Assembly (NCBI GenBank): GCA_041658955.1
Contig: JBAZZE010000001.1
Location: 16,676 to 80,675 of the forward strand
Source: Candidatus Shapirobacteria bacterium
GTDB taxonomy: Bacteria; Patescibacteriota; Microgenomatia; UBA12405
Direction of reading: 5' to 3'
Length of the DNA: 64,000 nt
Position 1 is the first letter of the stretch. Each line of letters starts with the position of its first letter. Of the stretch, positions 3,748-36,985 are shown piece by piece. The notes under the pieces are model-generated. The model was not told where the DNA came from. It made no database searches and worked only from the letters and a program-made list of their open reading frames with translations. Made by a program: the position numbers and the translations under genes.

Positions 3748-3751
3748 TCAT

Positions 3752-5147: not shown

Positions 5148-5221
5148 GGCAGGATAGCTCAGTTGGTTAGAGCATCGCATTCATAACGCGAAGGTCGCGG
5201 GTTCAAGTCCCGCTCCTGCTA
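5148..5221 (+). tRNA. tRNA with anticodon CAU (elongator Met or lysidine-Ile2)
   Basis: Acceptor GGCAGGA/TCCTGCT (1:72 is G:U), D-arm GCTC-AGTTGGTTA-GAGC, anticodon loop TTCATAA, T-arm GCGGG-TTCAAGT-CCCGC. The anticodon stem is not three G-C pairs and 11:24 is Y:R, so it is not the initiator. Confidence 0.75.
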
Positions 5222-5224
5222 CTA

Positions 5225-5298
5225 GGGCATGTAGCTCAGTCGGTTAGAGCACCGATCTTATAAGTCGGGGGTCCATGGTTCGAGTCCATGCATGCCTA
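5225..5298 (+). tRNA. tRNA-Ile (anticodon UAU)
   Basis: Acceptor GGGCATG/CATGCCT, D-arm GCTC-AGTCGGTTA-GAGC, anticodon stem CCGAT/GTCGG with loop CTTATAA (U33, then TAT, then A37), 5-nt variable loop, T-arm CATGG-TTCGAGT-CCATG. Confidence 0.7.
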
Positions 5299-5301
5299 CT
5301 T

Positions 5302-5964: not shown

Positions 5965-6007
5965 TTAGTTAACAAAAAAGCCGTCAAGTTAATGACGACC
6001 TCTTTGT

Positions 6008-6080
6008 TGGTTGCGGGGCCGGGAGTTGAACCCGGCCTGTGAGATTATGAGCCTCACGTGCAGCCGTACACTACCCCGCA
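6008..6080 (-). tRNA. tRNA with anticodon CAU (Met or Ile2); CCA encoded
   Basis: The reverse complement folds with acceptor TGCGGGG/CCCCGCA, anticodon loop CTCATAA, T-arm CCGGG-TTCAACT-CCCGG, and a genomic ACCA at the 3' end. Confidence 0.7.
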
Positions 6081-20017: not shown

Positions 20018-21103
20018 ATGCCAACTCCTCTAAACTTCCCTAAAATAAAACAGTCGTTAGTTGCCACCGCTAAAAAACTCCACTACCTTACCCAAGATGA
20101 AATACTGGCAGTCGTTGCCGAGCCAGAAAAATACGTCGATGAGATTGATAATCTGTTCGACTATTTATTCGACAAAGGTATAGATGTCTTCGATAAAGTC
20201 GAGTCCCAAGCCCTAGTCGATGTCAAAAAAGAGAAAGCCAACAATGCCGAATTATTGGCCATGCTCACTCAGAAAAACACCGTCGATTCTGTCCGCATGT
20301 ATCTTAAAGAGATCGGAAAGATTGATCTTTTAACCTTTGCCCAGGAAGTCGAATATGCCAAGGCCATCGAAAAAGGTTCTGATGAAGCCCGTGCCAATCT
20401 TATTAATGCTAACCTTCGTTTGGTCGTTTCCATTGCTAAAAAATATATTGGTCGTGGTCTCTCATTTTTAGATCTTGTCCAAGAGGGGAATCAGGGACTT
20501 ATGCGTGCTGTCGAAAAATTCGATTGGAAGCGCGGTTTCAAATTCAGTACCTATGCTACATGGTGGATTCGCCAAGCCATTACCCGTGCTATCGCCGATC
20601 AAGCCAAGACCATTCGTATTCCTGTCCACATGGTCGAGACCATCAATAAGGTTTACAAAGCTACTCGCGCCCTGACCCAACGTCTCGGCCATGAGCCATC
20701 CATCGAACAAATTGCCGATGAAGTCGGTATCACCATCGAAAAAGTCGAAGAAATTTATCGTATCTCTCAAGACACCACCTCACTGGCTACTCCAGTCGGT
20801 GACGATGAGGACTCATTTCTCGGTGATTTTATTGAAGACACCACTCAGCTCTCTCCTTATGAAGAGACTAGTATGGAGCTACTTCGCGAATCCATTGAAG
20901 AAGTTCTTGAAAGCCTCGACGAGCGCGAATCCAAAGTACTTTCCCTTCGTTTTGGTCTAATGGGTGAGACTCCTAAAACACTCGAAGAAGTCGGTAAGAT
21001 TTTTAATGTCACTCGTGAGCGCATTCGTCAAATCGAAGCTAAAGCATTGAGAAAACTCCGACACCCATCCCGTAGAAAGAAACTCCAAGACTACTTAGAA
21101 TAA
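20018..21103 (+). CDS. rpoD: RNA polymerase sigma-70 (primary sigma)
   Basis: Region 2 [37 protein letters not shown], region 3, and region 4 [28 protein letters not shown] placed the start at ATG 20018; the longer ORF from 19898 overlaps dnaG. Confidence 0.9.
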
Positions 21104-21155
21104 GCGACTGTCAATTTCTATCTTTTCAGACTTGTTTTAGTGTTAACATATCCCT

Positions 21156-21551
21156 ATGAGACAAGCTGTCACCGCCGTCATTCGCCAAGGCGATAAAATT
21201 TTACTTCATCAACGTAGTTTGGAGAGTCGTGGTCAGCCAGGTAAGTGGGAAAATGCCGGAGGTGAAATCGATGAAGGTGAGACTCCCGAAGTTGCTATTG
21301 TCCGTGAAATCAAGGAAGAACTTGGTGTCGACTTTACTATCGATAAACGAATTTACGAAGATGTTTTTAAAAGTGGTGAAGACGATTGGAAGGTAATAAT
21401 TTTTGGTGGCTCCATTGTTGGCACTCCAGAAGTTATGATCCCCGCTGAAACCATGGCTGTCAAATGGTTTGATCTTTCCGAATTAAAAGATGCTGATTTG
21501 GCCACCTATACTCGTGCCGATTTTGTAAAGTTTGGTTGGATAAAAGACTAG
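21156..21551 (+). CDS. Nudix hydrolase (MutT-like)
   Basis: Nudix box GGEIDEGETPEVAIVREIKEELGV. Confidence 0.7.
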   Translation: MRQAVTAVIRQGDKILLHQRSLESRGQPGKWENAGGEIDEGETPEVAIVREIKEELGVDFTIDKRIYEDVFKSGEDDWKVIIFGGSIVGTPEVMIPAETMAVKWFDLSELKDADLATYTRADFVKFGWIKD

Positions 21552-21570
21552 TCCTAAGCTACACTCTATT

Positions 21571-22797
21571 GTGTCCAAAAAAATATTTTTCTTTGGTCTT
21601 TTTCTTATTTCAGCAATTTATTTAATTCTTCGTCTTTGGGATCTATCCATTAAACTCGATTTTCGTGCTGATCAAGCCATTCATCTAAGTGAGGCCAAAA
21701 ATATGGTCGAGTCACGAACCATCCGACTTATTGGTCCCATGGTTACTTCACAATCTTTTGATGGACGCAATTTTTTTATCGGTGCCAACTATTATTATGT
21801 ATTAGCTCTCGCTGGTATACTCACGAATTGGGACCCGCTTTTAGTTACCGTATTTTTTATATTTATAGAACTTATATTTTATGTTGTTTTTGCATATTTT
21901 CTAAAGCAAAAATTCGGTACTTTTCTTTCTTTAATCTCTTTTTTCACTATCGCCGTTTCACCTTACTTTGTCGCCCATAGTCGCTTCTTTTGGAACCCTC
22001 ATCTACTTATACCACTGTCAATTATTGCCCTAATTAGCTTAGAAAAATATATTGATACTCGTAAATATAATTTTTTGGCGATGTCTGCATTTGCTTGGGG
22101 GTTCGCTTTCTCCGCTCATTACTCAGCTATTTTTTGGTTGCCAATTTTTATATTTTATTTAACTAAAAGTCGTCAACATTTTAATATAAAGTCACTATTG
22201 ATAATTGGCATTTCTTTTGTTGTTGGAGATCTTCCATTTTTTATCTTTGAACTTCGCCACAATTTTTACAATCTCAAAACATTTTTCTTGGTCTATTTTC
22301 ATCCCTCAGCCTCAACCGGTTTTACCTCACATTATCTAATCTTTCCCTTAATTATTTTTCTAATATATTTTTTACTCTCATTGTTCAAAAAATATAAATC
22401 AATCTTTGTAGGATTATTATTCTTGATCACCATTATTCAATTTTATATTTACCCACGTTACCCTTCTTTGGGTACTGTTCCTGGTTGGGACTATCCTACA
22501 CAATTAAAAATTACCGAATCAATTAGTCAAAACTGCCCACCAAACTTTAATGTCGCCGCTACCATGCAAGGGGATACTCGTTTTTATGATCTACGTTTTT
22601 TAGTAGAGAAAAATAATTGTCATCCCAACAGCGTCGAAAGTTATCCTACTTCCAAAACTTTATTTTTAGTTTCTTCTCACAATCGACTACCGGTTGATGA
22701 AACTGTATGGGAAGTCACTTCTATAAAACCTTTCACTGTCACCTCAACCACTCGTATAAATGATCTACTCGACCTTCACCGTATCGACCGGCTTTAA
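21571..22797 (+). CDS. Polytopic membrane protein, possibly ArnT/PMT-like (GT39/GT83) glycosyltransferase
   Basis: Aromatic-rich protein with 10 or more TM. Only the topology fits the family. Confidence 0.35.
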   Translation: MSKKIFFFGLFLISAIYLILRLWDLSIKLDFRADQAIHLSEAKNMVESRTIRLIGPMVTSQSFDGRNFFIGANYYYVLALAGILTNWDPLLVTVFFIFIELIFYVVFAYFLKQKFGTFLSLISFFTIAVSPYFVAHSRFFWNPHLLIPLSIIALISLEKYIDTRKYNFLAMSAFAWGFAFSAHYSAIFWLPIFIFYLTKSRQHFNIKSLLIIGISFVVGDLPFFIFELRHNFYNLKTFFLVYFHPSASTGFTSHYLIFPLIIFLIYFLLSLFKKYKSIFVGLLFLITIIQFYIYPRYPSLGTVPGWDYPTQLKITESISQNCPPNFNVAATMQGDTRFYDLRFLVEKNNCHPNSVESYPTSKTLFLVSSHNRLPVDETVWEVTSIKPFTVTSTTRINDLLDLHRIDRL

Positions 22798-23232
22798 CTC
22801 CACCTCCACCATCTGTCCATTTTCCAATCTTCTTTTATTATCAGTTTGTAAATAAGAAATCATTTCAATAGTAGTTAAGTGGCTAATAATCAGGATAGTA
22901 TCATCTGGTTTGTGATCAAATCGTAGGTCATCTAAAAATAGTTCAACTCGATCTTTTAGGTCCTCATAATTTTCAGATTTTTTCTTGTGGTTAACTAAGC
23001 TAGTCAAGTGGATTGGCATATCATCATCACGAACTCTCAAAATTTCATCCAATGTTTGAACACATCTTGGTTTTGGTGAGCAATAAATAGCATCAAATTT
23101 TTGATCCTTCAAATTCTCTGCCAGCTTTATAGCCTGGACAACTCCCACAGCAGTTAAGTTGTTTTCATCTCCAGCAACTTTATAACCCCGGTTATGAGCG
23201 GATTCTCCATGTCGGATTAGGATTAATTTCAT
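22765..23232 (-). CDS. Histidine phosphatase (phosphoglycerate mutase-like) family protein
   Basis: N-terminal LILIRHGESAHN (RHG motif). Confidence 0.7.
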   Translation of the reverse strand: MKLILIRHGESAHNRGYKVAGDENNLTAVGVVQAIKLAENLKDQKFDAIYCSPKPRCVQTLDEILRVRDDDMPIHLTSLVNHKKKSENYEDLKDRVELFLDDLRFDHKPDDTILIISHLTTIEMISYLQTDNKRRLENGQMVEVELKPVDTVKVE

Positions 23233-23247
23233 CGCCTATTTTACCAT

Positions 23248-23874
23248 TTAAATTTCTACACCTAACTTCTTAAGTTCTCCCATAAACTGGTCAAAATTTT
23301 CATAGACAAAAGTGTTTATCCCTAGTCCGTTTGCAGCTACCAATTTCTTTTCATCGTCGTCTGAAAATACGATTTCTTCTGGAAGCACCCCTGATTGATT
23401 AATTAGTTCTTGGTATATCATCGGCGAAGCTTTAGTGGCTCCGACTTCATAGGAGATGATCTTTACATCAAAATCATCCAAAAAACCAAATTTATCTTGC
23501 ATACCCTTGATTCTCGCTGGGAAATTATCAGTACAGATCATGGTTTTAAAACCTTTTTCTCTGAGCTCTCTGACAACCTTTACAACTTTATCATCAGTGC
23601 TACAGCCGTCAACGTAAATTTTCATAAACTCATCTGCTGTCATGTTTAGTCCCCACTTCTGCGCAGCCCAGTTCCAATATTCTGAATCACCCCACTTTCC
23701 GGTTTTATAAAACTCTTTCATTTCAGGAGAATCCAAAAAGACATACTTTGCCTGTTCTTCAGATATGCCCATTTCCACAATTTTCTTAATAAAATTAGCT
23801 TTACCGCTTACAAAATAAACACCTTCAAGGTCAAAAGTAATTGCTTTTATCATAGCTGATTCTAACATTATCAA
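23248..23874 (-). CDS. HAD-like hydrolase
   Basis: N-terminal ITFDLEGV (DxD/E-G-V motif I). Confidence 0.5.
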   Translation of the reverse strand: MIMLESAMIKAITFDLEGVYFVSGKANFIKKIVEMGISEEQAKYVFLDSPEMKEFYKTGKWGDSEYWNWAAQKWGLNMTADEFMKIYVDGCSTDDKVVKVVRELREKGFKTMICTDNFPARIKGMQDKFGFLDDFDVKIISYEVGATKASPMIYQELINQSGVLPEEIVFSDDDEKKLVAANGLGINTFVYENFDQFMGELKKLGVEI

Positions 23875-23877
23875 CTG

Positions 23878-24336
23878 TTACCCTTGTTCACTTATCATTT
23901 GCAAAGCACGTTGGATGTAGTTTTGTTGTCCAAAAGCCAGGTCCATATTTGCTGCCACTTCATTTTTCACCCAATGCCTATCCACGCTATGTCCGTGATC
24001 CATATCCAGAGCCTGCTGCGGATCTTCAACCAGCCCTATATACACTCCAATATTATTTTCAGTATCCACAAATCCTCGCCACAATTGAGCATCTATATGT
24101 CCAACACTGTGAGCTACTTCTCTAATTGCCGCTCGATCAGGTTTGTCAGGCATAGTGCTTAGAGGTCCTCTACCACTAATCATCGAGATTTCACGAACAC
24201 CATGTTCATTAGGATTCTTTTTCTTCTTTAAAAATACTTCGCCTTGTCGGTTAAATAGAACTACTACAATCGCTGAAAGTGGGCCTTTTTCAAAATCTGA
24301 TTGTGTGGGTGTTTCCGCGTGTCGAAATTCGATCAT
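23878..24336 (-). CDS. Hypothetical protein with a degenerate Nudix-like box
   Basis: The stretch ...DRAAIREVAHSVG resembles a partial REUxEExG. Confidence 0.3.
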   Translation of the reverse strand: MIEFRHAETPTQSDFEKGPLSAIVVVLFNRQGEVFLKKKKNPNEHGVREISMISGRGPLSTMPDKPDRAAIREVAHSVGHIDAQLWRGFVDTENNIGVYIGLVEDPQQALDMDHGHSVDRHWVKNEVAANMDLAFGQQNYIQRALQMISEQG

Positions 24337-24357
24337 TGTCCAAGTCTAGCATCTATA

Positions 24358-24624
24358 TTAGTGAATTTTTCGATCCCGTAAGACTATACCTGCTTCCATT
24401 TTGTTTCTTGCCTGGTCATAGGTTTCAAATTGATGGCTACTGCTATGTCGTAGTTCAATATGCATATTTATAGTGTTTACCAATACTATCTCATCAATTC
24501 TCGAATCTGCTCCATATTCTGCGGCTACCTCACGACATTCCGAACAGACTATTACTCTCTTTGTTGTACCTTCAATCTCTCTTATCTCTATCGTGGCACT
24601 AATTTTTGTACTATCTTCAGCCAT
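24358..24624 (-). CDS. Hypothetical small protein (CxxC)
   Basis: ORF only. Confidence 0.3.
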   Translation of the reverse strand: MAEDSTKISATIEIREIEGTTKRVIVCSECREVAAEYGADSRIDEIVLVNTINMHIELRHSSSHQFETYDQARNKMEAGIVLRDRKIH

Positions 24625-24726
24625 CGGGTATTATAGCCTGTATTTAGGCAACTATAAATATAAGCATAAATAATTAACTATACAGCTAAGCCTTGAAAAC
24701 TGTGGTTCGTTATTCTAACATTAGTC

Positions 24727-25413
24727 ATGGGTTACGCTGGAAAAATAGCCGAAAGAGAACTGGCAATTTCACTAAGAAAAAAAGGATATTCTTATAACCA
24801 AATTCAAAAATCTACTGGGTTGTCAAAAGATACTATATCTAGAACTTGTAGACAGGTTATTTTGACTAAAGATCAAATAAAAAATCTTGAAACACGAAGA
24901 ACTGCAGGTCAGATGTTGGCTTCAATTAAAGGTGCAAAGTCAAATCAGCTTAAGAAAGAGATCATACAAAAACAGTTATTAGAAGAAGGGGTCCGGCAGG
25001 TAGGTGAGTTAACTCGAAGGGATAAGTTCATATTTGGCATTTCACTTTATCTTGGTGAAGGCTCGAAAACAGGAAGCGCAGTTGAGTTTACTAATGCAGA
25101 CCCCATAGCTGTTAAGTTCATGCTCAATTGGTTCGTTGAATTCTGTGAAATACCTCAGGAAAGTATCAAGGCCAGTCTTTGGATTCATGACAACCTGAGC
25201 GAACCTGAAGCCAAAAAATATTGGTCAAATTTATTGGGCATCGAAATATCACAATTCGATAAGTCCTATATTGCAAAAAACAGGGTAGATAGTCGAAAAA
25301 TACGCAAAAATATTCACAAATATGGAATAATAAAGATTCGATACTATAGTGTAGCCAAATTACGCCTTATATTAGGTTGGATAAAGGGTGTACTTTCTAG
25401 TTACTCAGGATGA
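24727..25413 (+). CDS. HTH-domain protein with a LAGLIDADG-like segment (possible free-standing homing-endonuclease-like gene)
   Basis: N-terminal HTH (GYSYNQIQKSTGLSKDTISR). A central segment FIFGISLYLGEGSKTG resembles a single LAGLIDADG motif. The gene ends 40 bp upstream of the intron-containing tRNA. Confidence 0.35.
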   Translation: MGYAGKIAERELAISLRKKGYSYNQIQKSTGLSKDTISRTCRQVILTKDQIKNLETRRTAGQMLASIKGAKSNQLKKEIIQKQLLEEGVRQVGELTRRDKFIFGISLYLGEGSKTGSAVEFTNADPIAVKFMLNWFVEFCEIPQESIKASLWIHDNLSEPEAKKYWSNLLGIEISQFDKSYIAKNRVDSRKIRKNIHKYGIIKIRYYSVAKLRLILGWIKGVLSSYSG

Positions 25414-25452
25414 TATAATCATCAAGTCTTTCGCACATTCAACAATTTATCT

Positions 25453-25737
25453 TCCCCCTTAGCTCAGTGGTAGAGCGCTCGCCTGTTCCTATAGAGCAGC
25501 TTTCACGAGTAATCGTGATCGAAAATCGGGAGAATTGCGTGAAACCTAACCTGTCGCAAGACAATATGGCAACCCGCAGCCGAGCTCCAACTTTGGTTGG
25601 AGAAGGTTCAGAGACTAGGTGAGTACACCTTTAAGCACCCGAGTCCCATTTATGGGATATGATATAGTCCAAGCCTGTTAGAAATACAGGATTTACTTGT
25701 AAGCGATTGGTCCGAAGTTCGAATCTTCGAGGGGGAG
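25453..25737 (+). tRNA. tRNA gene interrupted by a 213-nt group I intron; exons give tRNA-Asn (GUU) on the most likely junctions
   Basis: 5' exon 25453-25486 (acceptor TCCCCCT, U8, A9, D-arm GCTC-AGTGGTA-GAGC, anticodon stem CTCGC, loop C-T-G-T). 3' exon 25700-25737 (T-A-A, GCGAT, variable TGGTC, T-arm CGAAG-TTCGAAT-CTTCG, acceptor AGGGGGA, discriminator G). The exon ends in U and the intron ends in G, as group I splicing requires. Confidence 0.7.
25487..25699 (+). ncRNA. Group I self-splicing intron (ORF-less) in the tRNA anticodon loop
   Basis: Conserved core elements are present: P AATTGCGTGAAA (25533-25544), Q AACCCGCAGC (25571-25580), R GTTCAGAGACTA (25606-25617, exact consensus), S GATATAGTCC (25661-25670). 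P1 pairing CUGU/GCAG with U.G at the 5' splice site; terminal G at 25699. Confidence 0.7.
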
Positions 25738-25842
25738 CATATTAAAAAAGTCCGTCAAAAAATGACGGATTTTTTAATATCTTCTTCCAAAAGTTCCAAT
25801 TCACTTTAGTGAGGGGAGTTTATCCACCGTGGCGGAAATCCT
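25735..25842 (+). repeat. Repeat copy A (tRNA 3' end plus about 100-bp trailer)
   Basis: GAGCATATTAAAAAAGTCCGTCAAAAAATGACGGATTTTTTAATATCTTCTTCCAAAAGTTCCAATTCACTTTAGTGAGGGGAGTT... This is near-identical to copies B and C. Confidence 0.8.
25744..25776. terminator. Bidirectional intrinsic terminator in the tRNA trailer
   Basis: AAAAAAG-TCCGTCA-AAAAAA-TGACGGA-TTTTTT: a 7-bp stem flanked by an A-run and a T-run. Confidence 0.5.
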
Positions 25843-25902
25843 CGAGGGGTGCTTAACAGAAAGATATGGTGCTAGAGTAAAAAACTAAGAACTAAAAAGA
25901 GG

Positions 25903-26052
25903 ATGTCTCAGCTGGAATTGGATCAAAAAGCCCAGCTAGATTTAACTACCATAAACGAAATTAAGAACGGTAATAGGGAGCCGATGCTAAGAATAATTTG
26001 GAGAATTTCCAACAATTTGGACATACCACTAAATAAGCTTTTTGAACTCTGA
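25903..26052 (+). CDS. XRE-family HTH regulator (49 aa; below the ORF-track size cutoff)
   Basis: MSQLELDQKAQLDLTTINEIKNGNREPMLRIIWRISNNLDIPLNKLFEL has the Cro/CI-type HTH pattern. It is the first gene after the repeat. Confidence 0.5.
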   Translation: MSQLELDQKAQLDLTTINEIKNGNREPMLRIIWRISNNLDIPLNKLFEL

Positions 26053-26129
26053 CTTCACAGAAAAGGATTTACTCTCACGTATTTTATACTATCCAGTATT
26101 GCTAGAGCTATAATCGGTTAGATATTAAC

Positions 26130-26708
26130 ATGAAAAAACAGGCAAAAAACTTAATACCAATAACTGAAGAAGATATTCAAGAATTTATTAGGCAAGCAGA
26201 GCTAATCTCTAAATGTAGCTATCTTAAAAACCCAGTTAAAAAGATAAACATCACCTATGACATGTCTAAAGGTCTAAATTTTGGCGGAGATATACCCCCA
26301 AGGGAGAGTGTTGACTCCTTTTTAATGATTTTAAGGCCTTTTATTGAATATAGAGAAAGACTTCATGTTGGACGCATAATTTCGTATCTTGAAGATACAC
26401 ACGGAAAGGCTGAAATGTTAAGTAAAGCGAGAACCTATCTTGATGCAAAAAGCCAGTTTCCTGTTGTTAAGATTGGAGAAAAGACTTATGGAGCAAATGA
26501 GATGATGTATTTGTACCTATATGGCAAATACTTCCATCTTGAAGAAGCTAAGCAGAAAGCATACCGATTAATAGAAGAAAATCTAGGCTACTACGGAGAA
26601 TTTACTGCCCTAAGCCAATTAGAGCGCTTTGCTGGAATAGTTTTAATGGTAGCGGGGGTTGTTAAAAGGTATGATAGAAATTTAAGTCAAAATGACAATT
26701 ATACATAA
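26130..26708 (+). CDS. Hypothetical protein (island 1 gene 1)
   Basis: ORF with no motif I recognise. It sits in a tightly packed same-strand operon. Confidence 0.4.
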   Translation: MKKQAKNLIPITEEDIQEFIRQAELISKCSYLKNPVKKINITYDMSKGLNFGGDIPPRESVDSFLMILRPFIEYRERLHVGRIISYLEDTHGKAEMLSKARTYLDAKSQFPVVKIGEKTYGANEMMYLYLYGKYFHLEEAKQKAYRLIEENLGYYGEFTALSQLERFAGIVLMVAGVVKRYDRNLSQNDNYT

Positions 26709-27390
26709 TCAAATTAATAGATTTTGGTCGAAGCCTACATATGAAAATTTTAAAAAACACGGCTTCGTAAAAAAAGTTTTTACTATAAATGACTCTGAAG
26801 AGTTTATTAAAACCGGAGCGTATCTCGTTGAAGAAGCTATAAAACAAATGAACTCTCACATTCCGTGGGATGAATCTAGAAAGTTTGAAATTTTATTGCA
26901 TCCAAGATTAGAAAATATTTTTTTGGCCTTAGGGACAGAATATTTCTTAAAGGGGATTTTATTAGCCAAGGGATATGCGATAAATAAGCCAAAGATGGGA
27001 ATTAGCCTCGCTCACCCAATCCCAGTTTCAAGTAATAAGACTAAATTGTTGAAAACAGAAGTTCAAGACCTTTCGTACATAAAAGACCAAATAATACGAA
27101 CGGTAGATTTTTCTGATTTCGATAAATCACAAGAATCAGAAAAAATAAAAGAAAAAAAAGTCAACAAAGGAAAGGGAGTTCGAGGAATAACCAGTCTTTC
27201 CGTACCCCATCCAACAGCAAAACAAATATTGGATTACCTGCATTTCAAAAGAAACTTCTCATTACACCGCCCTTTTATAATTTCAGAATTTAGCGGAATT
27301 GTCCAACAAGAGCTGAAAATACTAAATTATATTGCTCAAAAAGAAACGGGGGAGACAATTAAAAAACTATCTTCAATTATCCACGAGTGA
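26692..27390 (+). CDS. Hypothetical protein with a C-terminal HEPN-like RNxxxH motif (island 1 gene 2)
   Basis: C-terminal segment HFKRNFSLHRPF gives R187-x4-H192 (nt 27250-27267). Confidence 0.4.
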   Translation: MTIIHNQINRFWSKPTYENFKKHGFVKKVFTINDSEEFIKTGAYLVEEAIKQMNSHIPWDESRKFEILLHPRLENIFLALGTEYFLKGILLAKGYAINKPKMGISLAHPIPVSSNKTKLLKTEVQDLSYIKDQIIRTVDFSDFDKSQESEKIKEKKVNKGKGVRGITSLSVPHPTAKQILDYLHFKRNFSLHRPFIISEFSGIVQQELKILNYIAQKETGETIKKLSSIIHE

Positions 27391-27397
27391 ACAGCCA

Positions 27398-28528
27398 ATG
27401 AAAAAACACAACACCCTTGTCTTAATGCCGTATCTGCCACTTGAGGGACTTATTAAATTTGATGGCTTACAAATATGGTCATATCAAAAACTCGGAAATA
27501 CTTTGATAAAAAATACTGCATTAAAAAACCACATAGATAAATTAGTTGGTTGTTACCAGCTTCATAAGGGAAATAAAATACAAAATCCAGCAATAGTTTC
27601 AGGCAGTAAGATTTGCTTCACAAATCCAACACAGCTCACTATCTCAAAAATAGAAGTGTTGAAGAATATTCTTTTGTTTCTTGGAATTCTTGAAAACAAC
27701 AGTTGGTCATTTATTACCAGCGATAACTTTGAGGTTTTCTATCAACGATTTGTTGTTGGTGATTCTGGATTAGCTACACAGGCGGGCGCAATTCACCATA
27801 TTACTTCTGGAGGCTATTCAATTGATGAAATGATTTTTCTTAAACCAGAGTGCATCAACCTACCACTAAGGTTTAATCCAAACGGACCAATATTTAGAGC
27901 ACTAGAGGATTGTATGGTACAGTCACGCAGCAGCCAAGATAAAAGTCAAATTATTCAGTCATTGAACCCATTGTTTAACGCTTACAGAAATAGTCACGAA
28001 CATTCTTGGCAATCACGCATTTTGTTAATCGTAATGGCGTTTGAATTACTATTTGGCGAAACCGAAAGAAAAAATTTTCGCAAGAATATTCAAAAATACT
28101 CAACACTAGGATTAAATAAGTTGTCAAAAACTTACAAGTACCCAATTATGGACACAAGAAATGGAAAAGTGATCGGATATGAAGATCTTACCCTAAATCA
28201 AATATGGGCTGAAGAATTTTATAAATTACGACATAAAATAATTCACGGAGACACGATTTATAGTGACGACTCCATTTTCACAGATCTAGTCGTAAATAAA
28301 GTACCAAAAGAACCCCATTTTTATATAGCTATTAACTTTTTTGTTGTTTGCCTACTCAACAATTTGAGAGAATTAGGTTATCAAAACATAGAGCACTATG
28401 TAATAAATTCCGATTCATCAAAAGTAATATTCAACAAGGTTATTTCAGGTATTAAGGATGAGCTTTTTAAAATCGAAGATATTGGTTTATATGACGCAAT
28501 ATCCAACAACATTCCTGATGAACAATAA
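27398..28528 (+). CDS. Hypothetical protein with a HEPN-like Rx4HG motif (island 1 gene 3)
   Basis: YKLRHKIIHGD at about 28220-28252. I placed the start at ATG 27398, just after the upstream stop; the ORF-track start at 27332 overlaps the previous gene by 59 nt. Confidence 0.4.
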   Translation: MKKHNTLVLMPYLPLEGLIKFDGLQIWSYQKLGNTLIKNTALKNHIDKLVGCYQLHKGNKIQNPAIVSGSKICFTNPTQLTISKIEVLKNILLFLGILENNSWSFITSDNFEVFYQRFVVGDSGLATQAGAIHHITSGGYSIDEMIFLKPECINLPLRFNPNGPIFRALEDCMVQSRSSQDKSQIIQSLNPLFNAYRNSHEHSWQSRILLIVMAFELLFGETERKNFRKNIQKYSTLGLNKLSKTYKYPIMDTRNGKVIGYEDLTLNQIWAEEFYKLRHKIIHGDTIYSDDSIFTDLVVNKVPKEPHFYIAINFFVVCLLNNLRELGYQNIEHYVINSDSSKVIFNKVISGIKDELFKIEDIGLYDAISNNIPDEQ

Positions 28529-28577
28529 GATAATCGTTAGTTGTCAATAGGGTAGTAAATAGGGTTATAATTCCGAC

Positions 28578-28889
28578 ATGGATAAAAGTAAAAAGGTCGA
28601 ATTACTTGATACAAAAATAAGCTTTATTGAAGAATTGGCAGGCGAATACAACCCCAACAATCTTCGGCAGTGGCGAGAAGAAACACTTATGATTTTAGAC
28701 AATTTAATTACAGTTGAATCAAAATACTACACCAATTTCGAAGATATTAGATATGTGTCTGGTGTAATAACTCCTATGGATAGTGTTGGTAATTCGGAAA
28801 GAAACAAAAAGTCTTACTTTGCAGGTTTAGAGAGGGCAAAAAGTTCATTGAAGGCAATTGTTTTTGGCATTCAAAACGATTTAATCTAA
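28578..28889 (+). CDS. Hypothetical protein (island 1 gene 4)
   Basis: ORF only. Confidence 0.35.
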   Translation: MDKSKKVELLDTKISFIEELAGEYNPNNLRQWREETLMILDNLITVESKYYTNFEDIRYVSGVITPMDSVGNSERNKKSYFAGLERAKSSLKAIVFGIQNDLI

Positions 28890-28893
28890 AAAA

Positions 28894-29517
28894 ATGAATA
28901 CTGAAGACGATGTAAAAGAACTAATATTGAAATATCTTTATGACTACAATAAGAAAAAGGGGCTGTGGACCACTCCATTGAAAGTTGTTTCAGATATAAA
29001 GTCCCCGGAGGTAGATAAAGTGCAAATATTAAACAATATTTCATATTTGATTGGAGAAAAATATATAAATAAAAAAACAGTAAAGACAAAAGGTTGTGTT
29101 GGCGGTACGATAACCTTTGAGAAAATAATTATTTCAAATAAGGGAATTCAACATTTTGAAGACTCCAAGTTCTCAGTAAAACAGTTCTCCTCAATCAATA
29201 TTCAATCAGTACAAGGATCGAATAATGTCTTTATTTTGGGTGATCAAACCGGAACAATTAACCAAACGGTCGGAAATTCGATTGCGGAACTTGATAAATT
29301 GATTGATCAAATCAAGAGTCAAGAATTGTCAGTCGATAAAGAAAGAGAGTTGATTGGGGATGTTGAGACTATCAAAAGTCAGTTAATAAAGCCAAGTCCT
29401 TCTTCTCAAATAATAAAAATTGCATGGCTAGCATTAAATGGAGCCGCAACTTTATCTGGTTCACACGACCTGATGTTGAAAATTGGTATGTTGCTGCAAC
29501 AGTATCTGACACATTAA
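28894..29517 (+). CDS. Hypothetical protein, possible N-terminal winged-helix plus coiled coil (island 1 gene 5)
   Basis: ORF; the N-terminal ~70 aa resembles a wHTH by pattern only. Confidence 0.35.
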   Translation: MNTEDDVKELILKYLYDYNKKKGLWTTPLKVVSDIKSPEVDKVQILNNISYLIGEKYINKKTVKTKGCVGGTITFEKIIISNKGIQHFEDSKFSVKQFSSINIQSVQGSNNVFILGDQTGTINQTVGNSIAELDKLIDQIKSQELSVDKERELIGDVETIKSQLIKPSPSSQIIKIAWLALNGAATLSGSHDLMLKIGMLLQQYLTH

Positions 29518-29524
29518 GCCATAC

Positions 29525-29971
29525 ATGATTTACGTAATTGGAGTCGGTCACACTATCCAGCACGATAGCCTTCACTTTTTTGGTGAAACTCATGAATATA
29601 TAGCCAAGTTAAGGCAGTTGGTACATGATAATAATATTCAACTTATTGCTGAGGAGTACTCTAATGAAGCTGCCAGAATGGACCAAGTCACCGATTCAGT
29701 TACTAAAATAGTTGCTGATGAGCTAGGAGTTCCACACAGATATTGTGATCCCGATTCGGCTGAGCGAAGATCAATTGGATGTCATTCAAGTGACGATGAT
29801 CATTTAAGACTTGGCAATTGGTTTGATAAAATTTACGACAAGGCAAGAGAGCAAGTAATTTTTGTTTGCGGAGACAGTCATAAAACTGACTTTGCATCCT
29901 TAATTGCAGGAAATGGATTTGAAGTCATGATTGTGGAAAATAGTTTTATCACCAAAGTTGACAGGACATGA
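29525..29971 (+). CDS. Hypothetical protein (island 1 gene 6)
   Basis: ORF only. Confidence 0.35.
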   Translation: MIYVIGVGHTIQHDSLHFFGETHEYIAKLRQLVHDNNIQLIAEEYSNEAARMDQVTDSVTKIVADELGVPHRYCDPDSAERRSIGCHSSDDDHLRLGNWFDKIYDKAREQVIFVCGDSHKTDFASLIAGNGFEVMIVENSFITKVDRT

Positions 29972-30018
29972 TCTTTCCAAGCTTCCGAAAAAGGCGACTT
30001 TGCTAGAAAGTATCTATT

Positions 30019-30666
30019 TTGATATCATATGATATGAAAAAGAAAAGACTTATAACATCGAGTTCTAGAGATTATCAGGAACTTTACTCGTATTTACATG
30101 ATAACTATAAAGACACGAAGCTTGACTCATTATCTAAAGTATTTTTGTCCATGTTTATTGTTTCTACTGCTGTTATTTCGCTTTTCTTACTACCTGGAAA
30201 TAATAGATTATTTTCCTCAATATTGTTTCCGACTAGCACCACATTAAACGATATATCGAAGATATCAAAGTTGGAGGATTCCGTGAAAAAACTTAGTACT
30301 GCGGTTGAATCAATTAACAACAATTTAATAAAAGACCCAACAAATACAGATCTAAAAAAAATTAGCATTAGAATGTCAGGATTAGAATCGTCACAAGAAG
30401 CACTTACTGAGACGATTCTAGAAAACCCAGATAAGGCACTAACATCAAAGCTGATCAGAGAAAAACAGATAATGGTTGAAAATGGAGTCGCAGAGATAAA
30501 GTCAAATTTGTCAAAACTAAACGACCGACTAGATAATATCGTTACAGCGTTAGTAGCTATTCCTCTTGGCGGATTTGTTTTATCTTTGGTTAGTACACTA
30601 ATATATTTTTTAATAAACAAAGGCAAAACTCATTCAGCTAAAAACAAAATATTAAAGAAAAGGTAA
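30019..30666 (+). CDS. Hypothetical coiled-coil protein with an N-terminal TM and a C-terminal TM (island 1 gene 7)
   Basis: N-terminal hydrophobic segment (FLSMFIVSTAVISLFLL), C-terminal TM, central heptad repeats. Confidence 0.35.
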   Translation: MISYDMKKKRLITSSSRDYQELYSYLHDNYKDTKLDSLSKVFLSMFIVSTAVISLFLLPGNNRLFSSILFPTSTTLNDISKISKLEDSVKKLSTAVESINNNLIKDPTNTDLKKISIRMSGLESSQEALTETILENPDKALTSKLIREKQIMVENGVAEIKSNLSKLNDRLDNIVTALVAIPLGGFVLSLVSTLIYFLINKGKTHSAKNKILKKR

Positions 30667-30939
30667 GCCAAGACATAGGGTGCTATTTTTAGTCTCGTCA
30701 CGACTTAAAAGTCGATCCAGAATTTACTTTCTTGATCCTTTTACCTAAATACTCATTCAATAGGGTTGTAATAGGGTATTTACGGTGCTTGCAGACCACC
30801 CCATACTTTTTAGGCACAAAGTCACTGCAAGCCTCCTGATTTCCAGCCACCGTTGTTTCATTTCTCCAAAGTATTTTAGCTCTGTTGGCCCATCAATAAT
30901 TGCCTGATAATTCGAGGTTGTGTTAATCGAATGATTGGG

Positions 30940-31048
30940 GAGCATATTAAAAAAGTCCGCCAAAAAATGACGGATTTTTTAATATATTCTTCCAAAAGTT
31001 CCAACTCACTTTAGTAAGGGGAGTTTATCCGCCGTGGCGGAAATCCTC
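30940..31048 (+). repeat. Repeat copy B, preceded by a decayed tRNA 3' end
   Basis: ...TCGAATGATTGGGGAGCAT followed by the same trailer as copy A. The match to A runs to AAATCCTC, with 5 mismatches. Confidence 0.8.
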
Positions 31049-31119
31049 TGGGGGGGTGAGCCTACTATTCAGAAAACCTACAACCGTAGCCTTCTATCGT
31101 ATAATAAGCCAATAGTTAT

Positions 31120-32166
31120 ATGAATATAAAAAATTTTGTTGGTTTAAAATTTCTTCGTTGGGCCATTGGTCTCTTTTTTGCTTTAGGTGCACTTGTATAT
31201 ATCAAAGAGAGCATTATCACTTCCGCTAGTTTTTTTCTTTTGACAATTTTTACCCTGCCTCCTTTATCTGATATTCCATCTTCAATAATCAAAAGACCAA
31301 TTAATAAACCAATTAAATTAATAATTGGTTTTTTACTATTTCTCATAGCTGTCAAGTTCACTCCTCCGGTATCTGAATCAAAAAGTAGCACTACTCAAGA
31401 CTCGTCTTCCGCCATTGCACTCACATCTATTCCTACTATTACTTCCACCCTAACTACAATCCCATCAATATCACCTACCCCAACCACAAATCCTCATCTC
31501 GCCAGAATGGTCAGAGTAGTTGACGGCGATACAATAGTGGTTAAAATTAACAGCCAGGAAGAAACAGTCAGGTTAATTGGTATCGATACTCCGGAAGTAG
31601 TTGACCCCAGGAAACCAGTCCAATGTTTTGGAAAAGAAGCTTCAGAAAAGATCAAAGAATTAATTCAGGGTAAAAGCGTAATTCTAACTCCAGATCCTAC
31701 TCAGAATGATAAAGATAATTACGGTCGACTTTTAAGATATGTTTATCTTGAGGATAGTACTTTCATTAATAAAAAAATGATTGAAGAGGGTTATGCTTTT
31801 GAGTACACCTACAGTATTCCTTACAAATACCAGTTAGAGCTTAAAGAATCCCAAAGACAAGCAAAGACAAACAAACTCGGACTATGGGCTGACAACGCCT
31901 GTCCGACAAACACTCTAGTCCCTACCAAAAAACCCACTTCACTACCACAGTCGACCGCTGTCCCTCAAAAACCCTCATCATCAACGAATACTAATGTTGC
32001 ACCTGCAGACACTTCATCACCCGGTGGTTCTTGGGCTTGTGACTGTAGTAAAGCTTGTGGGGTGATGTCATCATGTGCTGAAGCTCAATATCAACTTAAT
32101 TCCTGCGGGTGTCAGGCAAGGGATGGGGATAAAGATGGAATAGCTTGCGATAGTGACTGTCAATGA
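31120..32166 (+). CDS. Secreted thermonuclease (SNase-like) with a C-terminal Excalibur Ca-binding domain
   Basis: N-terminal TM/signal, S/T/P-rich linker, SNase core VVDGDTIVV ... RLIGIDTPE ... YGRLL ... GLW. C-terminal CAEAQYQLNSCGCQARDGDKDGIACD is Excalibur-like (DxDxDG). Confidence 0.7.
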   Translation: MNIKNFVGLKFLRWAIGLFFALGALVYIKESIITSASFFLLTIFTLPPLSDIPSSIIKRPINKPIKLIIGFLLFLIAVKFTPPVSESKSSTTQDSSSAIALTSIPTITSTLTTIPSISPTPTTNPHLARMVRVVDGDTIVVKINSQEETVRLIGIDTPEVVDPRKPVQCFGKEASEKIKELIQGKSVILTPDPTQNDKDNYGRLLRYVYLEDSTFINKKMIEEGYAFEYTYSIPYKYQLELKESQRQAKTNKLGLWADNACPTNTLVPTKKPTSLPQSTAVPQKPSSSTNTNVAPADTSSPGGSWACDCSKACGVMSSCAEAQYQLNSCGCQARDGDKDGIACDSDCQ

Positions 32167-32333
32167 AAGACACAGTAATTGTGTTATCGTGACCGCACAC
32201 CACCTTCCAAATTTCTTCTAACGCTGGGAGCATTTGTACTACATACATATTAGGATAGAACGATTTTTGTACTTTTTAGCGGTAAATTGGTATAACAAAG
32301 TCTCGAGAAATTAGTGTTACCATATTTTAAAAT

Positions 32334-32750
32334 ATGGGCAAATTTAGAAAAGAGCCTCCAGTATTATCAACTAATATTGTAGGAAAAGTGGTAGCGACTG
32401 AAGAGGGAAATTTATTTAATGGTGAACCTATTCAGGTTGTTGATAAAGCTAGTATTCCCGTAGATATGGAAGAAGCTTTGCGTAAGAGTCAAGAATATGC
32501 TGAGGCGATTCGGTTGCTGTCTGCTAGATTAGGTGTTGATCCTTTAGATCCTGATGGTATTTTAGATCCTGATGAGTTTGAATTACCAATTTTTTATAAT
32601 TCTGTTGGCGATTCAGTAGTTATCAAAGACGGTGTGCAAAAAGTATTAGATGGGGTTTATGTACCTAAAGTTCATTCAGTCACGCAGTTACCAGTAATTA
32701 ATGGTGATTTGTTTGTTTACGTAAAAAAGGAAGTGGACTCAAAAGGTTAA
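32334..32750 (+). CDS. Hypothetical protein
   Basis: ORF only. Confidence 0.35.
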   Translation: MGKFRKEPPVLSTNIVGKVVATEEGNLFNGEPIQVVDKASIPVDMEEALRKSQEYAEAIRLLSARLGVDPLDPDGILDPDEFELPIFYNSVGDSVVIKDGVQKVLDGVYVPKVHSVTQLPVINGDLFVYVKKEVDSKG

Positions 32751-32809
32751 AACATTTTTTAACTATACGATACATCCGGTAAAGTAGTAGGAAGATCGTT
32801 CCATAGTTC

Positions 32810-32895
32810 GAGCATATTAAAAAAGTCCGTCAAAAAATGACGGATTTTTTAATATCTTCTTCCAAAAGTTCCAACTCACTTTAGTGAGGGGAGTT
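32810..32895 (+). repeat. Repeat copy C, preceded by a deleted tRNA 3' remnant
   Basis: GTTCGAGCATATTAAAAAAGTCCGTCAAAAAATGACGGATTTTTTAATATCTTCTTCCAAAAGTTCCAACTCACTTTAGTGAGGGGAGTT, then diverges. Confidence 0.8.
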
Positions 32896-32964
32896 CAGTC
32901 CGATCGTAGCATCGGACAATCTTCGAGGTGGAGCCAGATATTTTTATCTTGATACAATGTTTAA

Positions 32965-33561
32965 ATGAGAAAAATTATTGCAGTTGAATTTATTACCCTT
33001 GATGGTGTGATGCAAGCTCCAGGTGACTCTAAAGAAGATGCAAGTGAAGGCTTCAAATATGGAGGTTGGATGGGTCCTCATTTTGATGAAGTTGGAGGAC
33101 AAGAAATGGATAAACAGATGAAAGCGACACGTGGATTACTCCTGGGTCGAAAAACATACAACATCTTTGCCGAATATTGGCCTAAGAACACTGAAAAAGG
33201 TTGGCCCCAAATAAACAAAATTCCAAAATACGTAGTTTCCAATACTTTAAAGAATCCAACCTGGGAAAATACTGTCGTATTAAAAAATATAGACGAACTA
33301 AAAAAACTAAAAAACTCTAGTGGGGAAGACCTGCAGGTATACGGAAGCAGCAATCTTCTTCAGACATTAATGAAACATGACCTGGTAGATGAGTTTTGGC
33401 TTAAAATATTTCCTATTACTCTTGGTACAGGTAAAAAACTTTTTGAAGAAGGAACAATTCCTACTTCTTTTACTTTGATTGAAAGTAAAATAACTCCTTC
33501 CGGGGTTATCTTTGCATCTTACAGACGTGCAGGAAAAGTCAAAACTAGCTCAATGTTGTGA
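32965..33561 (+). CDS. Dihydrofolate reductase-like (RibD C-terminal domain) family protein
   Basis: MRKIIAVEFITLDGVMQAP ... LQVYGSSNLLQTL matches the RibD_C/YwjB pattern. Confidence 0.6.
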   Translation: MRKIIAVEFITLDGVMQAPGDSKEDASEGFKYGGWMGPHFDEVGGQEMDKQMKATRGLLLGRKTYNIFAEYWPKNTEKGWPQINKIPKYVVSNTLKNPTWENTVVLKNIDELKKLKNSSGEDLQVYGSSNLLQTLMKHDLVDEFWLKIFPITLGTGKKLFEEGTIPTSFTLIESKITPSGVIFASYRRAGKVKTSSML

Positions 33562-33698
33562 AATAAGTATTAATCTGGTCTATTGCGAAGCGTCCGGGGA
33601 GTTCTAAAATCGTACCACCTAGCGAGCAAATCAAAACAATGTGGTTCCGATAAGACATGATGATTGGAGACAATGGTCAAAAAGAGATATTATAAGGA

Positions 33699-34514
33699 AT
33701 GAACAAAATACCAAAAACCATAAAGCTTTATAATGGTGTGGAAATTCCCAGAATTGGTTTAGGAGTCTGGAAAATTGATAATTCCAAAGTAGATCAAGTA
33801 ATTTCATGGGCAATTGAAACTGGCTATCGTCATATCGATACCGCTTGCGCTTATAGAAACGAAAATGGCGTCGGTCTGGGTATCCGGCAAAGTAATTTAA
33901 ATCGGCAGGATATTTTTGTTACCACAAAACTTGCGATTCAAGATTTTTTTAAACCAGAAAAAGCCTTTTCTCAAAGTCTAGACAAATTAAAAACGGGTTA
34001 TATTGATTTATATTTGCTTCACTGGCCGTTTCTGAACTGGAAAAACGCTTGGAAATCATTGGAAAATATTTACAAAAACGGCCAAGCAAAAGCCATTGGC
34101 GTTAGTAATTTTAGTATTAAACAATTAGAGGAATTAAAAAAAATAGGCGGGATCAAACCAATGGTAAATCAAGTTGAATTGAGCCCTTTTTTATTTAGAG
34201 AAAAACTAATTGATTACTGTCAGTCAGAAAATATTGTTGTCGAGGCTTATAGTCCTCTCACCCGAGGAAAAAGAATCGATGACCAGACGTTAACTGAAAT
34301 AGCTAAAGGTTCCAGGAAGACTGTTGCTCAAATTATGATCCGTTGGGGATTGCAGCATAATTTAGTTGTCCTCCCTAAGTCGGAAACTAAAAGTCATATC
34401 CAGAGTAATTTTGATGTTTTTGATTTTGAAATAGATAAAAAAGACATGCAAAAATTGGACCTCCTCAATGAAAATTTCAGTGCCCTAATACCTGGCTGGA
34501 GTCGAAAGGACTGA
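33699..34514 (+). CDS. Aldo/keto reductase
   Basis: IPRIGLGVWK ... GYRHIDTACAYRNE ... LLHWP matches the AKR pattern. Confidence 0.8.
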   Translation: MNKIPKTIKLYNGVEIPRIGLGVWKIDNSKVDQVISWAIETGYRHIDTACAYRNENGVGLGIRQSNLNRQDIFVTTKLAIQDFFKPEKAFSQSLDKLKTGYIDLYLLHWPFLNWKNAWKSLENIYKNGQAKAIGVSNFSIKQLEELKKIGGIKPMVNQVELSPFLFREKLIDYCQSENIVVEAYSPLTRGKRIDDQTLTEIAKGSRKTVAQIMIRWGLQHNLVVLPKSETKSHIQSNFDVFDFEIDKKDMQKLDLLNENFSALIPGWSRKD

Positions 34515-34520
34515 TCACCA

Positions 34521-35012
34521 TCACTCCTCTTTTTCAGCAAAGTTCCAACTAGCTGGGTGGCAGATGATTTCTACTGATTCGATTTCAAATTTGAAGGCAT
34601 CAAACAACTTTTCAGCAATAGCGGCGTTTTGCGCCATATCAAGAATTCTAGACTCAGCGTCTTCTATTCTCATAGCCTCATCTTGTGCTGCCGAGTTTAC
34701 GAGAGACCTTTTAACATCGAGTTTCGCCCGTTCAAAAGCTTCTAATGGATTTACTGCATCATTGGTGGTTGTATGAGTCCCAAATTCGTTGTCATAAATA
34801 ATGACTTGAAAAATATATTGGTCTGGTTTGACTAATGTGCTCAATATTTCAGCTATTGGCTCGGCGATTAAGCTATCACTTGTTGGCACGGTCAGACTCA
34901 CACCATATAAGCCATCTTTTCGTTTCGGCATTAATGTTTTTATTTCCACGCCCATGTTCGCCAAGTCAGAATCTGGTTGATTTAGAGTGCTCCACAGTTC
35001 TTTGTTAACCAC
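34521..35012 (-). CDS. Hypothetical protein
   Basis: ORF only. Confidence 0.35.
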   Translation of the reverse strand: MVNKELWSTLNQPDSDLANMGVEIKTLMPKRKDGLYGVSLTVPTSDSLIAEPIAEILSTLVKPDQYIFQVIIYDNEFGTHTTTNDAVNPLEAFERAKLDVKRSLVNSAAQDEAMRIEDAESRILDMAQNAAIAEKLFDAFKFEIESVEIICHPASWNFAEKEE

Positions 35013-36679: not shown

Positions 36680-36985
36680 ATGACCAAAAACCCCCTGATC
36701 AATGCCCTAAGTGCTTCCGCCTATATTATTCTGGGTGTCACTATCATGTCTTTTGTGACAAAACCATTACAAAATAAACCCGATACTTTTTTTGCTCCGG
36801 TCGTATTCCTATCTCTTTTGACTCTATCAGTCGCCGTCATGGCATTTCTATTTTTCTACCAACCAATTGTTCTTTTAATCGATGGTAAGAAAAAACAAGC
36901 CGTCGACCATTTTTTTAAAACAGTCGGTATCTTTGCAGCCATCACTGGACTCTCTCTCGTCCTTCTTTTTTCCGGTCTGATTTAA
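36680..36985 (+). CDS. Small membrane protein
   Basis: Three TM segments. Confidence 0.3.
   Translation: MTKNPLINALSASAYIILGVTIMSFVTKPLQNKPDTFFAPVVFLSLLTLSVAVMAFLFFYQPIVLLIDGKKKQAVDHFFKTVGIFAAITGLSLVLLFSGLI

Follow-up and report, generated by a model that had tools for sequence, protein, structure and literature searches.

Two recombinase-less islands and three repeat units behind an intron-containing tRNA-Asn gene of Candidatus Shapirobacteria: a probable accretion array

How do two gene islands come to stand in tandem behind a single tRNA gene, with one non-coding unit repeated before, between and after them and with no recombinase gene at hand? This question is raised by a locus in a metagenome-assembled genome of Candidatus Shapirobacteria, an uncultured, ultra-small member of the Candidate Phyla Radiation (CPR, Patescibacteria). 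The DNA analysed, called the window in the following, is a stretch of 64,000 nt from contig JBAZZE010000001.1 (positions 16,676 to 80,675 of the forward strand), and all features of the locus described below lie on its plus strand. The locus begins with a tRNA-Asn(GUU) gene at 25453-25737 and continues with repeat unit A, island 1, unit B, island 2 and unit C up to 32936. We consider it probable that this arrangement is an accretion array, which would have arisen by repeated site-specific insertion at the tRNA 3′ terminus and would since have lost its recombinase genes.

A repeat search of the window returned one family of direct repeats with three copies, at 25732-25849, 30937-31054 (94%) and 32807-32924 (76%), with spacings of 5205 and 1870 nt. 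Counted from the common GAGCA, copies A and B differ by 5 mismatches in 108 nt, and over 86 nt copy C differs from A by one mismatch and from B by three, diverging beyond this point. A first-pass annotation, made from the letters of the sequence, had given the same account of the three copies (108 nt with 5 mismatches for A and B, 86 nt for C), and repeat search, alignment and independent assemblies all agree with it. A 34-nt core and a 32-nt terminator each occur exactly three times in the 64 kb, where none is expected from shuffled sequences. The unit is non-coding and about 115-125 nt long, its three copies alternate with the two cargo islands, and the sequences past the unit ends, namely island 1, island 2 and the flank with a RibD_C family gene, are mutually unrelated.

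Each unit opens with the terminal nucleotides of the tRNA (5 nt in C, 8 nt in B). A terminator comes next, then a spacer of about 35 nt with a small hairpin, a second hairpin and finally a segment which mirrors the T-loop, the T-stem and the 3′ strand of the acceptor stem. Unit A (25735-25852) starts with GAGCA, carries its bidirectional terminator at 25745-25775 and, after the spacer with its hairpin, ends with the tRNA-3′-like sequence AATCCTCGAGGGGTGC (25837-25852). In unit B (30937-31062), which starts with GGGGAGCA, the terminator at 30950-30980 has one stem mismatch, and spacer and hairpin are followed by AATCCTCTGGGGGGGTGAGCC, a degenerate version of the tRNA-3′-like segment of unit A. 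Unit C (32810-32936) again starts with GAGCA; its terminator (32820-32850) and spacer are followed by a different hairpin (32898-32917), which replaces the second hairpin of the other units in the equivalent place, and by the tRNA-3′ copy CAATCTTCGAGGTGGAGCCA (32917-32936). A strong bidirectional intrinsic terminator is kept in all three units. Unit B has three private changes, two of which break hairpins. The fold energies of the units are better than those of shuffled sequences, with z values of -3.0 to -5.6.

The tRNA-3′-like segments at the right ends of the units had been missed by the first-pass annotation. Among the displaced copies of the tRNA 3′ end, the best one (CAATCTTCGAGGTGGAGCC, with 16 matches to the 19 terminal nt of the tRNA) stands at 32917-32935. 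It lies 30 nt upstream of RibD_C and forms the far boundary of the array. When the 19-mer GAATCTTCGAGGGGGAGCA is searched with up to three mismatches, only the tRNA and this site are found and none is expected. A shorter pattern, AATCYTCGAGGGG, searched with at most one mismatch, has only three sites, where 0.16 are expected: one in the tRNA and one each closing unit A (25837) and unit C (32918). In unit A, the segment at 25837-25849 (AATCCTCGAGGGG) matches the tRNA 3′ end in 12 of 13 positions. Hence every unit starts directly after a tRNA-end-like sequence (the tRNA itself with ...GAGCA, island 1 with ...GGGGAGCA and island 2 with ...GAGCA) and also ends with one. The repeat is mostly not tRNA, and about 55 nt of it represent the terminator and trailer of the tRNA. 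The earlier description of the repeat as tRNA end plus trailer is right in that units B and C resemble displaced copies of the tRNA end with its terminator. It is off the mark for the tRNA part, which on the left side comprises only GGGGAGCA (8 nt) in B or GAGCA (5 nt) in C, with better copies at the right ends.

Such an array could also be produced in silico, if a single tRNA trailer were multiplied or if metagenome assembly or binning linked unrelated contigs through a repeat that they share. In line with this, short-read assemblies from other samples (L002, L003, L005, L006) end at the repeats and the tRNA or close to them. However, two contigs of ENA ERZ27249449, an independent k141 assembly from another sample, cover 21090-26404 (L001) and 26410-34719 (L004) with at least 99.9% identity, the former running through copy A and the latter through copies B and C. 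The copies are furthermore separated by copy-specific single nucleotide polymorphisms, and these are fitted exactly by two Logan contigs which begin at 32845, the first position where k=31 separates copy C from A and B. Only assembled contigs were compared; they break at the repeats, and no alternative junction is found among them. The array is not an assembly artefact, an explanation to which we give next to no credence.

The tRNA gene itself is easily overlooked. ARAGORN with default settings calls no tRNA at 25453-25737, because a group I intron of 213 nt splits the gene; with introns allowed, the program reports the 213-nt intron, and Rfam assigns it to RF00028 with 63.8 bits. The 5′ exon occupies 25453-25486, the intron 25487-25699 and the 3′ exon 25700-25737. 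The splice site obeys the group I rule, with U(-1) before the 5′ splice site and omega-G as the 3′ end of the intron. This rule, together with the orthologues in loci L009 and L010, leads to the anticodon loop CUGU/UAA and thus to tRNA-Asn(GUU) with the intron at position 35/36. Both exons are intact in the window and identical in L009 and L010. Introns of the group I type in the tRNA-Asn genes of Patescibacteria are already published as a class and were shown to self-splice (Nakagawa et al. 2026, PMC13011429).

For comparison, 80 loci were gathered by means of the gene directly upstream of tRNA-Asn. The product of this gene in the window (24727-25413) has 228 aa and combines an HTH with a LAGLIDADG-fold domain; across CPR, the gene is conserved in its place upstream of tRNA-Asn, and it served as synteny anchor. 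The window is collinear with L010 and with L009 and L011, two loci from one record of which L011 is the GTDB locus, up to the last base of the tRNA, and nothing is common beyond. In L010, the closest relative (86% amino acid identity in the upstream neighbour protein), the homology stops exactly after ...GGGGGAGCA (...GAGCA). The first-pass annotation had proposed to look for an empty site, and the distant locus L023 provides one: here a homologue of RibD_C, which in the window is encoded at 32965-33561 (Pfam RibD_C), begins 54 nt after tRNA-Asn. In L072, tRNA-Asn is followed by a 1.3-kb insert, which is bounded by a tRNA-end copy and holds one open reading frame (ORF) of 193 aa, and then by the RibD_C homologue; L072 and the window also share a 101-aa membrane protein (window 36680-36985). 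The gene order in L023 and L072 therefore points to RibD_C as the ancestral downstream neighbour. Judged by this synteny, the about 7.2 kb at 25740-32936 are DNA that was inserted at the 3′ end of the tRNA-Asn gene and left the gene intact.

What inserts at this place in related genomes is seen best in L010. There, a large serine recombinase of 578 aa (Resolvase, Recombinase and Zn_ribbon domains) is encoded on the opposite strand at 2799-4535, its ORF running into the tRNA exon. An equivalent arrangement was found in 10 of the 53 GTDB loci with at least 1.5 kb of downstream sequence (L014, L025, L026, L030, L031, L034, L044, L070, L079 and L080). Together with L010, at least 11 CPR genomes of several classes thus have a large serine recombinase gene which abuts or overlaps the 3′ end of tRNA-Asn. 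The Pfam combination Resolvase+Recombinase(+Zn_ribbon_recom) was confirmed in the four loci checked (L014, L026, L034 and L079), and L059 is also listed with the recombinase family at the tRNA-Asn end. The junction of these elements always lies right after ...GGAGC(CA), and subfamilies of the recombinase share element-side arms, for example GATGGGACGCAGAGGCAA in L031, L059 and L080. As cargo, type IIG restriction-modification, HEPN and SNase+Excalibur genes are carried. The enzyme family at work in the relatives is likely a serine recombinase, and comparison of these loci shows the tRNA-Asn 3′ terminus to be a recurrent, phylum-wide landing site for integrative elements in CPR. In a literature search, we found no description of this recombinase family at tRNA-Asn for Patescibacteria. 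We also know of no report on large serine recombinases that target the tRNA 3′ terminus across a whole phylum.

In seven loci, inserted DNA is bounded by a direct repeat of the 18-20 nt with which the tRNA ends (T-loop to terminus), located 0.1-6.6 kb downstream, and the reverse-strand control gave one match. In L011, a 5.9-kb insert ends with GAATCCTCGAGGGGGAGCA, and the terminator that directly follows has about 90% identity to the left ~55 nt of the unit. The tRNA end plus terminator therefore is the native target in this lineage, and by this comparison units B and C are displaced copies of the native junction between tRNA end and terminator.

Other features at tRNA-Asn were noticed among the relatives. 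Genes for small GIY-YIG proteins of about 90 aa stand directly downstream of tRNA-Asn and beside an 18-20-nt tRNA-end copy in L027 (6632-6907), L073 (8076-8276 and 9692-9976) and L011 (13566-13868, with an in-frame stop), and in L027 the gene alone makes up the entire insert of 377 nt. A more distant GIY-YIG homologue follows the tRNA in L029 (4861-5130), where a tRNA-end copy is absent. These observations suggest a tRNA-Asn-targeting GIY-YIG cassette; in the window, tblastn with the GIY-YIG proteins of the relatives found no remnant. Mini-inserts are present in L053 (7883-8012) and L069 (7975-8151). They consist of 111 or 158 nt of non-coding DNA behind tRNA-Asn, closed by a near-perfect 18-20-nt tRNA-end copy and in L069 including a terminator, an architecture like that of one repeat unit of the window. 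A right-end motif GAGTTTAY..., seemingly common to the unit and to the GIY-YIG-associated insertions of L011, L053 and L073, was discarded, as it is at chance level in a shuffle test (p 0.1-0.9). In L010 (2487-2566), 52 nt are inserted at the 5′ end of the tRNA gene between 14-nt direct repeats (TCTTCCCCCTTAGC), which take in the first 11 nt of the tRNA.

The two islands differ in size and content. Island 1 (25853-30936, 5.1 kb) comprises an N-terminally truncated HTH protein resembling XRE and C proteins (25903-26052) and seven ORFs without assigned function (26130-30666). None of its ORFs reaches the cut-off for a Pfam family, and the PADLOC matches, all weak, concern PDC-S35 and PDC-M14B, which are candidate defence families, and an HTH control protein. 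The GC content of island 1 is 0.32-0.36, compared to 0.37-0.40 in the flanks, and no homologue of the island was found in L010 or L009. Island 2 (31063-32809, 1.75 kb) encodes an SNase nuclease that is anchored in the membrane and has a C-terminal tail rich in Cys (31120-32166; Pfam SNase, 9.6e-27; PADLOC C3a212 (SNc+LTD), 1.9e-49) and a 138-aa ORF without assigned function (32334-32750). Homologues of this nuclease with SNase and Excalibur domains are located inside the serine recombinase elements at tRNA-Asn in L034 (64% amino acid identity) and L026 (53%), and the element in L034 also holds an XRE gene like the fragment in island 1. A tblastn match of the C-terminus of the L010 recombinase to 25696-25869 (38%, E 3e-4) was rejected as a recombinase remnant, since it derives largely from the overlap of the ORF with the identical tRNA exon.

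Several known kinds of element were considered for the unit itself. In Rfam 15, only tRNAs and the group I intron pass the gathering threshold in the window, and unit C at best reaches 23.5 bits, where the threshold is 56. The reading of the unit as tRNA-like or as another known RNA was set aside, since neither ARAGORN nor Rfam supports it and a cloverleaf-like fold of unit C is absent in A and B. Integron gene cassettes are recruited by an IntI integrase with its attI site, and their attC sites are imperfect palindromes with a conserved GTTRRRY. An integron was rejected for the array, as there is no integrase, the unit is a directional combination of terminator and tRNA-like end instead of an attC palindrome, and the islands are multi-gene. 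A search of JGI metagenomes for the terminator with variable loop gave no match, and in the collections scanned the unit is not traceable beyond this population. A 12-mer of the unit spacer, TTGGAACTTTTG (25795-25806, minus strand; B and C have it at the corresponding offset), recurs unchanged in L016 and in part in L013 and L015, where it lies inside a conserved forward-strand promoter-like motif, ..GGAACTTTTGTATAAT, after tRNA-Asn; the motif itself has no match in the window.

How, then, was the array built? The account we favour, and hold to be probable, is repeated site-specific insertion. Each insertion would regenerate the target, i.e. the tRNA end plus terminator, so that later insertions could reuse the site; the inserted pieces were possibly composite modules of a unit plus an island, and the recombinase genes would have been lost afterwards. 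The islands would now be recombinase-less and at best cis-mobilisable remnants with defence-like and nuclease cargo, and the repeated terminators may end the transcripts of the tRNA and of two island operons. We infer that a recombinase like those of the relatives made these junctions, and the order of events and the route of unit triplication are proposed on the same footing. The first-pass annotation had likewise called for successive insertion at the tRNA 3′ end. In kind this is supported by the empty site, the breakpoint in L010, the recombinases of the relatives and the tRNA-end copies. Its simple order attL-island-attR-island-attR fails to explain why a full unit stands directly behind the intact tRNA and why each unit has a second tRNA-like end.

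A number of results weigh against site-specific accretion. The decayed T-arm remnants which the first-pass annotation had placed to the left of copies B and C are not better than shuffles or genomic controls in local and end-anchored alignments (p of about 0.03-0.1 for B and 0.1-0.3 for C), and this part of its argument is not supported. Its statement that both islands are free of an integrase agrees with our searches, and with the queries used (Pfam, PADLOC and tblastn with the recombinases of the relatives) no recombinase or integrase was detected in the window as a whole, nor any recombinase remnant in the islands. At the internal boundaries, no more than 5-13 nt agree with the tRNA, the copies there being short or degenerate (GGGGAGCA, GAGCA, the 12/13 match and the degenerate version in B). 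Serine recombinases normally need few base pairs of identity and do not generate repeats of 86-118 nt. The junctions ...GGGGAGCA/TATT and ...CGAGCA/TATT are compatible with a core of 5-8 bp, but an identity of 86-118 nt to their right is not what such an enzyme produces by itself, so that an extra step is needed for the unit to be triplicated. For the recombinase-bearing elements no attR is readable in the loci, being too short, and in L014, extended to 10 kb, the right end was not reached; consequently, these elements are linked to the 18-20-nt repeats by analogy only. The SNase gene of island 2 is oriented opposite to its homologues in L034 and L026 relative to the tRNA, exact patterns of the repeat core (22-26 nt) have no match in GTDB representative genomes, IMG/VR or JGI metagenomes, and the genomes with an empty site are distant, at 42-50% identity in the anchor protein.

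Homologous recombination is a rival explanation that does without a site-specific enzyme. The unit would then be simply the native trailer of tRNA-Asn. If circular or linear foreign DNA with an equal trailer, taken up for instance from related strains, entered by a Campbell-type single crossover, or if unequal crossing-over occurred inside the trailer, a duplicated unit would flank each island, and long, near-identical direct repeats of 86-118 nt are the expected product of a single crossover. The left ~55 nt of the unit are native-like, as they also stand behind the displaced tRNA end in L011, and no recombinase is present. Moreover, the units are mosaic, A and B sharing the right part and C differing, with a breakpoint at offset 86, as crossovers inside the unit predict. 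Yet this explanation does not predict tRNA-3′-end-like sequences that are exact to the base on both sides of each unit, and no donor with unit plus island was found in GTDB representatives, JGI metagenomes or IMG/VR. We favour a site-specific origin over homologous recombination alone, which we hold to be possible though somewhat unlikely, because all boundaries fall exactly on tRNA-end-like sequences and the same base is the junction of recombinase-bearing elements in at least 11 other genomes. A selected function would be a different matter altogether. The unit could act in regulation or as an RNA, combining a bidirectional terminator with a structured RNA, a leader or an antisense small RNA, and could have been duplicated for each operon, with the islands as ordinary variable genes; the terminator conserved in the three copies, the better-than-shuffled folding, the exchange of the second hairpin for a different one in the same place of unit C, and the fact that each unit closes a transcription unit (tRNA, island 1 and island 2) would all fit. 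However, no Rfam family comes near its threshold, two changes in copy B break hairpins, and none of the relatives or collections contains the unit beyond its terminator part. The number of copies (three, of which two are near-identical) permits no covariation test, and the tRNA-end copies at the unit ends are left without explanation, so that we regard a functional cassette as quite improbable.

The periodic structure fits more than one course of events: five successive insertions at a target of the tRNA-end type, consisting of three miniature arms-only elements and two cargo elements; accretion and cis-mobilisation of composite unit-plus-island modules; or Campbell-type homologous recombination within the unit. 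An unlikely but specific version is that the unit of about 120 nt is itself a miniature non-autonomous element, which would insert exactly at the 3′ terminus of tRNA-Asn-type genes, bring along a terminator and a fresh tRNA-end copy and thereby rebuild the landing pad of the recombinase. If this were true, it would explain the strict alternation of unit, island, unit, island and unit, the mini-units of L053 and L069 (111-158 nt) would be further members, and a tiny CPR genome could capture cargo islands repeatedly at one safe site.

Some neighbouring features of the window deserve mention. The dihydrofolate-reductase-like RibD_C protein (32965-33561) shares 75-89% identity with proteins that carry the labels Woesebacteria, Saccharimonadales and Levyibacteria, whereas the HAD hydrolase encoded next to it is about 50-57% identical to all homologues except a few closest ones. 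This pattern reflects either an unusually strong conservation of RibD_C or a recent transfer among CPR lineages. RibD_C was dropped as a synteny probe for close relatives, as this identity holds across many CPR classes and no match exists on the contig of L010. A second RibD_C paralogue follows about 4.4 kb downstream (L005 4487-5098). Elsewhere in the window, a small tRNA cluster (5148-6080) includes, beside tRNA-Met(CAU), a tRNA-Ile with the anticodon UAU at 5225-5299, as called by ARAGORN. A tRNA-Ile with a UAU anticodon is uncommon in bacteria.

Tandem islands behind a small RNA gene are known from other bacteria, and we see the array of the window as the expected outcome of known biology, not as a new mechanism. 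Its closest analogues are the ssrA-specific islands of Dehalococcoides, which stand in tandem downstream of a single-copy small-RNA gene, are bounded by 3′-end copies of about 20 bp starting in the T-loop, and have a serine recombinase of about 540 aa on the reverse strand next to attL (McMurdie et al. 2011, PMC3146451). About half of them lack an integration module and were read as cis-mobilisable or as fixed remnants (PMC3146451). Tandem islands bounded by 3′-end-like sequences are common to both systems, as is, in L010, L034, L026 and other loci, the reverse-strand serine recombinase by attL. In contrast, the target is here an intron-containing tRNA-Asn in CPR, no integration module is found in the islands of the window, and the repeat has 86-118 nt including a terminator instead of just about 20 bp, with short or degenerate internal tRNA copies.

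Other systems share some of the traits. Large serine recombinases of prophages and islands (phiC31, Bxb1, SCCmec type) act on attB and attP sites, which measure about 40-50 bp and have in common a short core where the crossover takes place; this core, of about 2-12 bp, is all that attL and attR share, and long direct repeats are lacking. The elements of the relatives resemble them in that the recombinase gene lies at the element edge by the junction, whose position is one fixed base in a conserved host gene. Cis-mobilisable elements (CIMEs) are islands flanked by attachment sites but devoid of recombination and transfer genes, built in tandem by site-specific integration at regenerated sites. 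They are defined relative to a cognate integrative and conjugative element (ICE) whose integrase acts on their attachment sites, and their mobilisation was shown experimentally. Accretion and CIMEs as a concept of streptococcal ICEs have been reviewed (PMC5704250). The islands of the window are likewise repeat-flanked, in tandem and free of recombination functions, but a cognate element is missing in the window; we file them as recombinase-less or CIME-like remnants rather than as active elements. To our knowledge, no conjugative systems are known in CPR bacteria. In the tycheposons of Prochlorococcus, repeated integration at one tRNA gene pushes older elements inward, degenerate elements and scattered partial tRNAs mark the older events, and adaptive or defence cargo is carried (Hackl et al., bioRxiv 10.1101/2020.12.28.424599). 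Tyrosine recombinases prevail there, large serine recombinases being a minority, and the repeat is a partial tRNA only (bioRxiv 10.1101/2020.12.28.424599). The repeat of the window differs in being mostly post-tRNA sequence, and no recombinase-bearing element is present there. From known island arrays in general, the window is set apart by the host phylum, the intron-containing tRNA-Asn as target, the lack of a recombinase and the long repeated unit.

For CPR bacteria, with their tiny genomes, gene flow and mobile elements are poorly charted. The array described here indicates that elements at tRNA-Asn can decay into recombinase-less tandem islands, and the locus offers a concrete site at which the turnover of islands in CPR could be followed by polymerase chain reaction. 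The relatives, in turn, may supply natural pairs of recombinase and attachment site with a defined target at the tRNA end.

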